NCBI RefSeq assembly: GCF_003334315.1
Contig: NZ_QOWR01000026.1
DNA: 57,948 bases
Origin: Escherichia coli
GTDB lineage: Bacteria; Pseudomonadota; Gammaproteobacteria; Enterobacterales; Enterobacteriaceae
Strand: one strand, 5' to 3'
How positions within the stretch are numbered: position 1 is the first letter of the stretch; each line of letters begins with the position of its first letter. The notes beneath the pieces are model-generated. The model ran no database searches and was not told the DNA's origin. It saw nothing but the letters and a program-made list of their open reading frames with translations. Positions 34,674-36,034 of the stretch are shown piece after piece. The translations under genes were made by a program, and so were the position numbers.

Positions 34674-34690
34674 GTGTGTTATCGGTGCAG

Positions 34691-34720
34691 AGCCCGGGCG
34701 AACCGGGCTTTGTTTTATTT
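34691..34720 (+). terminator. Rho-independent terminator of phoH
   Basis: AGCCCGG-GCGAA-CCGGGCT hairpin followed by TTGTTTTATTT. Confidence 0.75.
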
Positions 34721-35256
34721 CAACAGATTTTCACTTCAGGTTAGCGTTCAGGGGGGCGACTTTGAGCGTGTTGATAAGCTGAACTGGAGTCTGGTTTAGA
34801 TACTCTTACCAGGCATTTTTCGTCATAGCATCAGACCAGTGTAATACTGCCAGCGCGGAGAGTTTTTCTTCCAAAAGCCAAAAAAATGAGCATCTGCCTA
34901 TCTTTTTTCGGCCATTCAACCTGTACAGGAGATCTGGTGCCAATTTTGCTTATGAGGTTTAATCAACAATGGGCCATAATTTGCCTGACTGATTAACACT
35001 GAATATATTCCTCTGATTTATTCTTTAGGGATAATATTATAAATGTAAGGTTAATCTTAATTAATTCTTTTGGCTAATATTGTGTGTTGTTATTTTTTTT
35101 GTGGAAGGCAAGCTGCAATGGCAAAATAGGGATGGTTGTAATAATCAAAACATGATACTAACTATATATTGATCGTTGCATTGTTGGCATGTAACACGCT
35201 TCAGCGAGTAACATTGGTAATGAAATATAATCAACATGGATAGGTGAAAATTAATT

Positions 35257-35943
35257 ATGAGCTTTATGGCTTTTGTAACTTGTTTGACAATTGCATTTAT
35301 CGCCGGTTTTGCTGTTGCCAGAAAATTGACACTCCGAAAAGTTGCCTCATCGGTAATCATCGCTAAATCGCAACCAGTCCCTTCATCTGCAACTTCCCCT
35401 GCCGCTAAGGCGTCGACAAGGAGCTATATACCGCAGAAAACCTATCGTGACTCTCGTTGGCAAGAGCGAGATGAGTTATTTCAGGGAATGGTTGCCGAAG
35501 GTATTTTATTGGAAAGAAAAGAGTGGTTAATCACGCGTTGTGAAAAAATGTATTTCGATAATCTGGAAAAATGGTTTGGACACTATTGTCATATCCATTG
35601 CCAGGTCTCTCTGGGGCGCTTGATCAACTTTCCAGAACAACCTGAGTTTAGCGAAGAAGAAAGAAAGCGTTTCTTTGCAATTTATAATGGCATGGCAATG
35701 GATTATGTTCTGGTTTCAAAGAAGAACAATAAAATAGTCTGTGTTATTGAGCTGGATGACCCGAGTCATGAAAGGGCGGATCGCATTATTCGTGACCGTT
35801 GGTTGGATACGATTATGACTCTTGCACGGGTGCCTTTTGTACGAGCTTCTGTCACTAAATTGGAGGAAATCCCTCCGGTCTGGGAGACTCGTGACAAAAT
35901 TCGCCCATTAGTCGCGGCGACAAAGAGTGAACCGTTGCATTAA
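35257..35943 (+). CDS. Hypothetical membrane-anchored protein, possibly with a restriction-endonuclease-like (DUF2726/NERD-like) C-terminal domain
   Basis: 228-aa ORF preceded by TATAAT at 35226-35231 and AGGTGA Shine-Dalgarno; N-terminal hydrophobic helix FMAFVTCLTIAFIAGFAVA; C-terminal segment VCVIELDDPSHERADRIIRDRWLDTIMTLARVPFVRAS; domain assignment from memory only. Confidence 0.6.
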   Translation: MSFMAFVTCLTIAFIAGFAVARKLTLRKVASSVIIAKSQPVPSSATSPAAKASTRSYIPQKTYRDSRWQERDELFQGMVAEGILLERKEWLITRCEKMYFDNLEKWFGHYCHIHCQVSLGRLINFPEQPEFSEEERKRFFAIYNGMAMDYVLVSKKNNKIVCVIELDDPSHERADRIIRDRWLDTIMTLARVPFVRASVTKLEEIPPVWETRDKIRPLVAATKSEPLH

Positions 35944-35993
35944 CTAAGTATCCCGGTCGGGGCTTCTCATCCCCCCGGTGTGTGCAATACACG

Positions 35994-36022
35994 AAAAAAA
36001 AGCCCGTACTTTCGTACGAGCT
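35994..36022 (-). terminator. Rho-independent terminator of serX
   Basis: Minus strand: AGCTCGTAC-GAAA-GTACGGGCT followed by TTTTTTTT, immediately 3' of the tRNA. Confidence 0.75.
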
Positions 36023-36034
36023 CTTCTTTAAATA

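Follow-up and report, generated by a model that had tools for sequence, protein, structure and literature searches.

Genomic islands linked to tRNA genes arise by integrase-mediated insertion at tRNA 3' ends. In Escherichia coli, the block comprising pga, ycdT, ymdE and ycdU between phoH and serX/ghrA is described, in the passages of two studies that concern this region, as missing from 10-20% of phylogroup A strains and also from Tob1, Fec101 and B-8638 (Goldstone et al. 2016, PMC4951805; Cimdins et al. 2017, PMC5635171), and the corresponding passages of the former present the pga region as prone to attrition. The domain family DUF2726, a member of which occupies the locus studied here, has been placed in the PD-(D/E)xK superfamily and grouped with Vsr/DUF559 (Steczkiewicz et al. 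2012, PMC3424549); a literature search found no DUF2726 member with a measured activity or function.

The stretch of E. coli DNA analysed here (the window, 57,948 nucleotides of contig NZ_QOWR01000026.1) carries the same locus in a compact form. The left core flank is phoH (33609-34673, plus strand, in the K-12-style 354-aa reading of the ORF list; RefSeq annotates a 262-aa form starting at 33885), with efeB (31993-33264) upstream of it, and the right core flank is ghrA (36356-37294, plus strand, ORF list); both phoH and ghrA are annotated at the homologous loci of A31, S1-CAM-04-C and K-12. Between the phoH stop codon, which ends at 34673, and serX lie 1,361 bp (34674-36034), compared with 11,508 bp in K-12 MG1655, where pgaDCBA, dgcT (ycdT), IS3D, ymdE and ycdU are found. 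An earlier note on this DNA had given these distances as 1.36 kb and about 12 kb and had listed pgaDCBA, ycdT, IS3, ymdE and ycdU as the K-12 content, and both the measurement and the MG1655 annotation agree with it. We consider the interval in the window to represent the ancestral state, without pga, of an E. coli locus that exists in two states, pga-dgcT being the derived one, and its DUF2726 product to be a predicted membrane-anchored, nuclease-like protein (probability roughly 0.85).

The boundaries between shared and allele-specific DNA are sharp. Positions 33001-34716 are 98.95% identical to K-12 by blastn; homology stops at 34716 and resumes at 35952, approximately 8 bp past the stop codon of the only substantial ORF. 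The last sequence that the window has in common with pga-bearing genomes on the left is the phoH intrinsic terminator hairpin (34687-34713, plus strand), for which the scan reports an 11-bp stem with 7 GC pairs and a T tail. The allele-specific segment thus delimited by blastn against K-12 and A0 34/86 spans 34717-35951 (1,235 bp), and K-12-type and B2-type genomes carry pgaDCBA-dgcT and later additions in its place. It begins with a non-coding part (34717-34954, GC 0.437) that matches E. albertii at 77% identity and could not be detected in Salmonella, followed by a very AT-rich region (34955-35256, 302 bp, plus strand, GC 0.305; 82% identical in E. albertii) that we regard as the putative promoter or regulatory region of the DUF2726 gene, a promoter scan having placed sigma-70-like sites at 34981-35009 and 35118-35145. 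Together, approximately 540 bp of non-coding DNA precede the DUF2726 gene itself (35257-35943, plus strand, 228 aa). This gene had been noticed previously as the single expressed-looking ORF; it is indeed one intact ORF, with AGGTGA 9 nt ahead of its ATG.

On the right, homology to pga-bearing genomes resumes in the serX 3' trailer and terminator (35952-36034, minus strand), where, read on the minus strand, a CGTAC-TTTC-GTACG hairpin precedes a run of T. The adjoining serX gene (36035-36122, minus strand; tRNA-Ser(GGA) by ARAGORN, Rfam tRNA 53.8 bits) points its 3' end toward the interval, and its sequence is 100% identical in E. albertii and Salmonella. In K-12 the trailer unit (35952-36053 in the window) forms a tandem array of 3.4 copies with a period of 181 bp, two of which score as RtT. 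The window holds a single copy, in which the scan for RtT (Rfam RF00391) gave no match; a tandem-repeat search of the interval returned no arrays, and an Rfam scan gave no match inside 34717-35951.

We searched the window with the K-12-specific 11.4 kb and the proteins encoded there (blastn and tblastn) and found no pgaDCBA, dgcT or ycdU anywhere in the 58 kb, the sole match being the serX trailer. The strain lacks the pga genes at this position, as the earlier note had proposed, and it cannot synthesize PGA from the phoH-serX locus. The claim that the locus is strain-variable was examined in 5,426 complete E. coli genomes, queried with the segment 34717-35951 and with pgaC. The segment was matched in 1,052 of them, at coverage of at least 80% in 1,044, and pgaC was matched in 4,382; the 1,044 and the 4,382 sum to exactly 5,426, so that variability is borne out and the pga-less allele accounts for 19.2%. 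These counts mean that the two alleles are mutually exclusive or that genomes with both and genomes with neither occur in equal, small numbers. Since the two counts account for all genomes, the source strain very probably lacks pgaABCD-dgcT throughout its genome and makes no PGA at all. Identity among the 1,052 segment matches is at least 99% in 231, 95-99% in 442 and 90-95% in 379, and the carriers include O26:H11 strain 11368, O111:H8 strains and SMS-3-5, which indicates that the pga-less allele is spread over several deep lineages.

The direction of change was judged from several Salmonella loci together with a single genome each of E. albertii and of a cryptic Escherichia clade; an exact-peptide scan of genome contigs recovered 3 loci and missed Salmonella, so its lack of matches in E. 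fergusonii, E. marmotae and E. ruysiae is uninformative. The E. albertii type strain is colinear with the window from efeU through serX, the whole segment included. In Salmonella enterica the order is putA-putP-phoH-DUF2726-(IS)-serX-ghrA-ycdXYZ-csgG, the ORF being intact (219 aa) and the ortholog very widespread (3,781 index blocks of the genome collection). The ORF has diverged at about the pace of its flanks: nucleotide identity is 96.2% in divergent E. coli (efeB 96.1%, ghrA 97.7%, ycdX 97.3%), 88.4% in E. albertii (efeB, ghrA and ycdX 90.2%, 86.8% and 87.3%) and 78.7% in Salmonella (phoH 81%, ghrA 71%, ycdX 79%), and its dS is close to that of phoH (0.09 against 0.06, and 0.43 against 0.33). 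No integrase or mobility gene is present in 34674-36034 according to the ORF list, in which the only ORF longer than 73 aa is the DUF2726 gene, and a search for attL/attR-like direct repeats of the serX 3' terminus was negative in 34500-36300, where just two short, chance-level pairs were found, and at the phoH-side junction. Near-orthologs of PgaD are named from E. coli only, and the next relative, from Citrobacter, is 55% identical. Taken together, the synteny in E. albertii and Salmonella, the flank-like divergence, the absence of integrase and att repeats and the distribution of PgaD suggest that the DUF2726 arrangement is ancestral and pga-dgcT derived; phoH-DUF2726-serX would have been inherited vertically since the ancestor that Escherichia and Salmonella share. 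The earlier note had raised the prospect of a common ancestral state with pga elsewhere, and it is the first half of this that agrees with the comparison, pga elsewhere being the half that does not.

The same observations bear on the idea, advanced in that note, that the segment is a small horizontally acquired islet, delivered to the serX 3' end at the level of a strain or lineage and occupying the pga site of K-12. Several features are of the kind expected from such an islet. The segment adjoins a tRNA 3' end, and the interval is AT-rich relative to its flanks, as had been noticed (GC 0.415, against 0.51-0.54 for efeB, phoH and ghrA), an atypical rather than ordinary core composition when compared with the window mean of 0.504. 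It falls at the 5th percentile among 1,361-bp windows of the 58-kb stretch, which is not the lowest value, and the ORF (GC 0.437) has a GC3 of 0.41, compared with 0.47-0.59 in neighboring genes. A region at 12.4-13.9 kb of the window is more AT-rich still, with a GC of 0.34. We rejected low GC as a sign of foreign DNA, as the competing pga block of K-12 is likewise low (0.454); with both alleles GC-poor, composition fails to tell an islet from the pga block.

The serX flank is also a genuine insertion hotspot in relatives, and homologs of the DUF2726 protein occur on ICEs, T6SS islands and conjugative plasmids. Escherichia sp. MOD1-EC7003 carries phsABC and other genes after the DUF2726 ORF, and Salmonella carries IS elements, T6SS genes and other cargo between this ORF and serX. 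Every one of these inserts sits in the gap between DUF2726 and serX without displacing the gene, which indicates that the gene acts as flank and not as cargo. With neither mobility gene nor repeat of the tRNA end, and with synteny, divergence and dS in E. albertii and Salmonella resembling those of the flanks, we consider recent delivery to the tRNA 3' end very unlikely, and the data speak against that part of the earlier note. It is possible that the gene was acquired before Escherichia and Salmonella split, but it would then not be a strain-level islet.

Even less probable is that the ORF is a decaying, functionless relic of a mobile element and the interval non-coding filler. DUF2726 has no known function, 81% of E. 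coli genomes do without the gene, truncated or frameshifted variants exist, and the AT-rich upstream region suggests silencing, in which H-NS may be involved. Against decay, the ORF retains its full length in E. albertii, in Salmonella and in E. coli lineages that differ by approximately 4%, its catalytic-type residues do not vary among 19 homologs with identities as low as 38%, and with dN/dS values of 0.05-0.27 it appears to be under purifying selection. A deletion scar, in which an ancestral pga-ycdT-ycdU region was lost and residual sequence left behind, would be in keeping with the attrition described for this region in the relevant passages of PMC4951805 and with IS1-mediated deletions such as that in strain E8, but can hardly be reconciled with a segment whose 1,235 bp have no homology to any part of the 11.4 kb of K-12, whether as DNA or as protein, and which holds an intact conserved gene that K-12 lacks and that occupies the corresponding position in species devoid of this pga locus.

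Returning to an ancestral pga-less allele, the manner of its replacement can be outlined. In the B2 strain A0 34/86 only pgaDCBA-dgcT (8.2 kb) lies between phoH and serX, and the junctions, at 34716 and 35952, are identical in K-12 and A0 34/86. This points to a single original event and indicates that the pga allele would have arisen by one replacement of exactly 34717-35951, in which the E. coli lineage exchanged this segment for the 8.2 kb of pgaDCBA-dgcT. The K-12 type would later have gained IS3, ymdE-ycdU and the RtT-bearing 181-bp repeats of the serX trailer. Within E. coli both alleles show phylogroup-level divergence (94-100% identity for the segment, 90-100% for pgaC), suggesting that the replacement is old and may predate or postdate the base of E. 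coli.

Both alleles now segregate, and recombination that has its anchors in the core genes on either side appears to pass them from one lineage to another. The flanks of the window and K-12 are approximately 99% identical although the alleles differ, which argues that the alleles segregate within closely related backgrounds. Strain E8 is a recombinant: its left flank is of the window type (99.95%) and its right flank of the K-12 type (99.63%), and it keeps 34717 to approximately 34948, that is, the left non-coding part of the segment, from which an illegitimate join leads into mid-pgaD. A single homologous crossover together with one illegitimate join would account for this pattern and offers a plausible model for the original replacement.

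The product of the displaced gene matches Pfam DUF2726 (PF10881) with an E-value of 4.2e-18 and 65.7 bits (residues 90-205, model positions 3-116 of 126), and its orthologs are annotated in more than 1,000 RefSeq genomes as DUF2726 domain-containing protein. Some variants (P0005, P0007, P0013) are truncated or frameshifted. Scans of the product against NCBIfam and, for defence systems, against PADLOC-DB (E up to 1) gave no match, and the sole match in PHROGs was phrog_14167, of unknown function. Three regions can be recognized: a predicted membrane anchor (residues ~3-25), a variable disordered linker (~26-60) and a PD-(D/E)xK domain (~70-220). This architecture is constant in 19 homologs down to 38% identity, in which a short N-terminus with no basic residue, often with Asp at position 2, precedes the hydrophobic helix, and a K/R cluster, a variable low-complexity linker and a conserved domain of approximately 150 aa follow it. 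By the positive-inside rule, the DUF2726 domain should be cytoplasmic.

The AlphaFold2 model contains a confident alpha/beta domain, for which a restriction-endonuclease-like fold is predicted, with Vsr, I-Bth0305I and the DUF559 protein NGO0050 as the best small-domain matches in fold comparison; searching PDB sequences with a profile brought up nothing meaningful among the solved structures, so that fold comparison alone provided matches. Across the 19 homologs D149 is near-invariant and E165, D168, H171, R176, R179 and D180 are invariant, positions that are defined by conservation. The motif D...E-L-D-D-x-S-H is conserved, and judging by the alignment these residues would fit the Vsr/DUF559-like branch of the PD-(D/E)xK superfamily. 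The product could then be a membrane-tethered, Mg2+-dependent nuclease whose substrate is nucleic acid on the inner side of the membrane. We regard nuclease activity as conceivable, at somewhat below even odds, and any specific biological role for it as more doubtful.

To place the protein among its relatives we sampled the genomic context of its nearest non-orthologous homologs, which are 37-50% identical and have the same architecture. In all nine look-ups that returned a locus, the gene lies in a T6SS cluster or an ICE transfer module. The T6SS settings are TssM-(TssA)-DUF2726-TssF-TssG-TssJ-VgrG, or a VgrG island in which the gene adjoins a VgrG-DUF2169-PAAR toxin; the ICE setting is TraU...TraG_N...DUF2726...integrase. 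Adjacency to phoH is limited to the Escherichia and Salmonella orthologs and absent in distant relatives, and we rejected a functional linkage between phoH and DUF2726 in the sense of a conserved, operon-like pairing. Relatives on viral contigs are 23-34% identical only. A plasmid origin of the ORF was likewise rejected: plasmid homologs are less than 40% identical, match in the domain only and are mostly on conjugative plasmids, and among three near-identical "plasmid" matches is one record of 1.4 Mb that probably represents a chromosome.

The phoH-linked gene may be a very old copy stranded from a T6SS/ICE-type element, an origin that predates the vertical history since the Escherichia-Salmonella ancestor and agrees with it. 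A more specific proposal, which we hold to be rather unlikely, is that the ORF belongs to a clade of inner-membrane-tethered REase-fold proteins accessory to T6SS (between tssA/tssM and tssF) and to ICE mating-pair modules (downstream of traG), and that the phoH-serX copy was stranded and has been under purifying selection since before Escherichia and Salmonella split. If so, a benefit to the host would be implied, for example through the cutting of nucleic acid on the cytoplasmic side of the membrane, at the point where foreign DNA comes in, and loss of DUF2726 would be an unrecognised cost of gaining pga-dgcT.

In practical terms, the source strain is among the approximately 19% of E. coli without pgaABCD-dgcT, and PGA-dependent biofilm phenotypes are not to be expected of it. 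The K-12 reference is misleading at this locus, where the state that appears as missing would be ancestral and the pga block a replacement specific to one lineage, with junctions that are precise and shared. The locus offers a clean two-allele system for the flank-anchored swapping of accessory blocks, with E8 as a recombinant caught mid-swap, and the displaced DUF2726 gene, with relatives in T6SS and ICE loci, provides a modest lead for functional work.

In comparison with known systems, the segment shares with tRNA-linked genomic islands its position at a tRNA 3' end, its low GC and a site that accepts foreign DNA in relatives, but it differs from them in having no integrase and no repeats of the tRNA end, and in being syntenic across genera and not sporadic. 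The K-12 pga block, which also lacks an integrase and att repeats, differs in having replaced resident DNA instead of being simply inserted. With RtT-type repeats (Rfam RF00391, tyrT-like) the locus shares the serX trailer unit, repeated in K-12 and present in the window as a single copy that has no RtT match. As a member of DUF2726 and the PD-(D/E)xK superfamily, the protein has the Pfam match, the predicted fold and the D...E-L-D-D-x-S-H motif; compared with DUF2726 at large, the present subfamily adds the N-terminal membrane anchor and disordered linker, and the phoH-serX gene appears to be a vertically inherited chromosomal gene, not one amid mobile elements. The closest precedent is the pga polymorphism itself, the passages of PMC4951805 and PMC5635171 that concern it describing the identical locus and the identical presence/absence polymorphism. 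As this polymorphism is already published, the finding is real but ordinary; those passages report absence alone, whereas the DUF2726 occupant, the exact junctions and the proposed ancestral status of the pga-less form come from the present analysis, which adds to the known polymorphism its reversed polarity, exact shared junctions, complementarity over 5,426 genomes and the T6SS/ICE context of the relatives.

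The allele-specific segment between phoH and serX in the window (34717-35951) also occurs in recombined form. Escherichia coli E8 (NZ_CP104526.1, locus L004, 6001-7916) carries a hybrid allele in which the initial ~232 bp of the window-type segment, corresponding to 34717-34948 of the window, are fused to mid-pgaD, and beyond this join come fragments of pgaC and ycdU with an IS1 between them. The allele is flanked on the left by sequence 99.95% identical to the window type and on the right by sequence 99.63% identical to the K-12 type. Eight genomes match the window-type segment only partially, and these may be hybrids of the same kind. 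The B2-type pga allele of E. coli A0 34/86 (L019, 13580-21744) consists of pgaDCBA-dgcT only, with ~100 bp between the end of dgcT and serX. Since IS3D, ymdE and ycdU, all present in K-12, are missing from this B2-type allele, we conclude that the K-12 pga block is a composite.

The trailer of serX is a further variable feature of the phoH-serX locus, as shown by the copy number of a repeat unit comprising the trailer and the final 19 nt of the tRNA. In K-12 (L003, 16962-17584) this unit forms a tandem array of 3.4 copies with a 181-bp period and 99% matches, E. albertii (L007, 8688-9233) has ~3 copies, and the window has a single copy (35952-36053). Two of the K-12 trailer copies score as the Rfam family RtT, and the copy in the window gives no RtT match.

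We also examined the surroundings of the DUF2726 gene outside E. coli. In Salmonella enterica GCA_036716055.1 (L008, 8710-16660) the phoH-linked orthologue precedes an IS, beyond which a T6SS-type island on the opposite strand encodes Hcp, two ImpA_N/VasL proteins, DUF1240 and LprI; serX was not found within 8 kb. In the cryptic-clade genome Escherichia sp. MOD1-EC7003 (L006, 6153-6238 and 8710-16684) efeUOB is missing, and the DUF2726 gene is not followed by serX-ghrA within 8 kb but by genes that include those for thiosulfate reductase (phsCBA) and for an ABC-transporter ATPase. In many Salmonella assemblies the orthologue is annotated as a protein of 151 aa (L011-L013, 8001-8456), which starts at an internal Met and lacks the membrane anchor. 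This shorter form seems to reflect a choice made in annotation, because the complete 219-aa frame is open from position 7797 in L012.

Two further records carry the gene or its segment. JAIJJM010000775.1 (L005), a 1,450-bp contig of a metagenome-assembled genome labeled 'Collinsella sp.', matches the E. coli phoH 3' end together with the DUF2726 segment at 94% identity, and is almost certainly Escherichia DNA that was mis-binned. CP061244.1, listed in PLSDB as an E. coli 'plasmid' of 1,412,998 bp, encodes the gene at 198651-199334 with 99.6% identity, and this 1.4-Mb record is probably a chromosomal fragment or a misassembly.

Elsewhere in the window, the GC minimum (~0.34) lies between cbpA and agp (12653-13908), where two adjoining ORFs, one of 302 aa and one of 116 aa, lie on the same strand and share 4 bp. 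Their total of 418 aa equals the length of K-12 yccE, so the pair may represent a split or frameshifted yccE. Rfam matches above the gathering score include, on the minus strand, naRNA4 (CssrE; 11027-11105), two copies of ES036 (CssrF; 16991-17033 and 51908-51950) and the sRNA ES056 (41722-41813). Ysr251 (Yersinia antisense sRNA 251) also matches on the minus strand at 34475-34668, with 190 bits vs a gathering score of 100. This match lies antisense to phoH, over the 3' end of the gene, and probably reflects the conserved phoH coding sequence that underlies the family.

None of the papers retrieved under the name DUF2726 links this domain to T6SS or to ICEs. Membrane-anchored DUF2726 relatives, 37-50% identical, recur in these two settings (L014-L018, L020-L023 and L076-L078). 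In T6SS loci they are encoded between tssA/tssM and tssF, and in ICEs they lie downstream of traG_N, beside an Integrase_1-type integrase.
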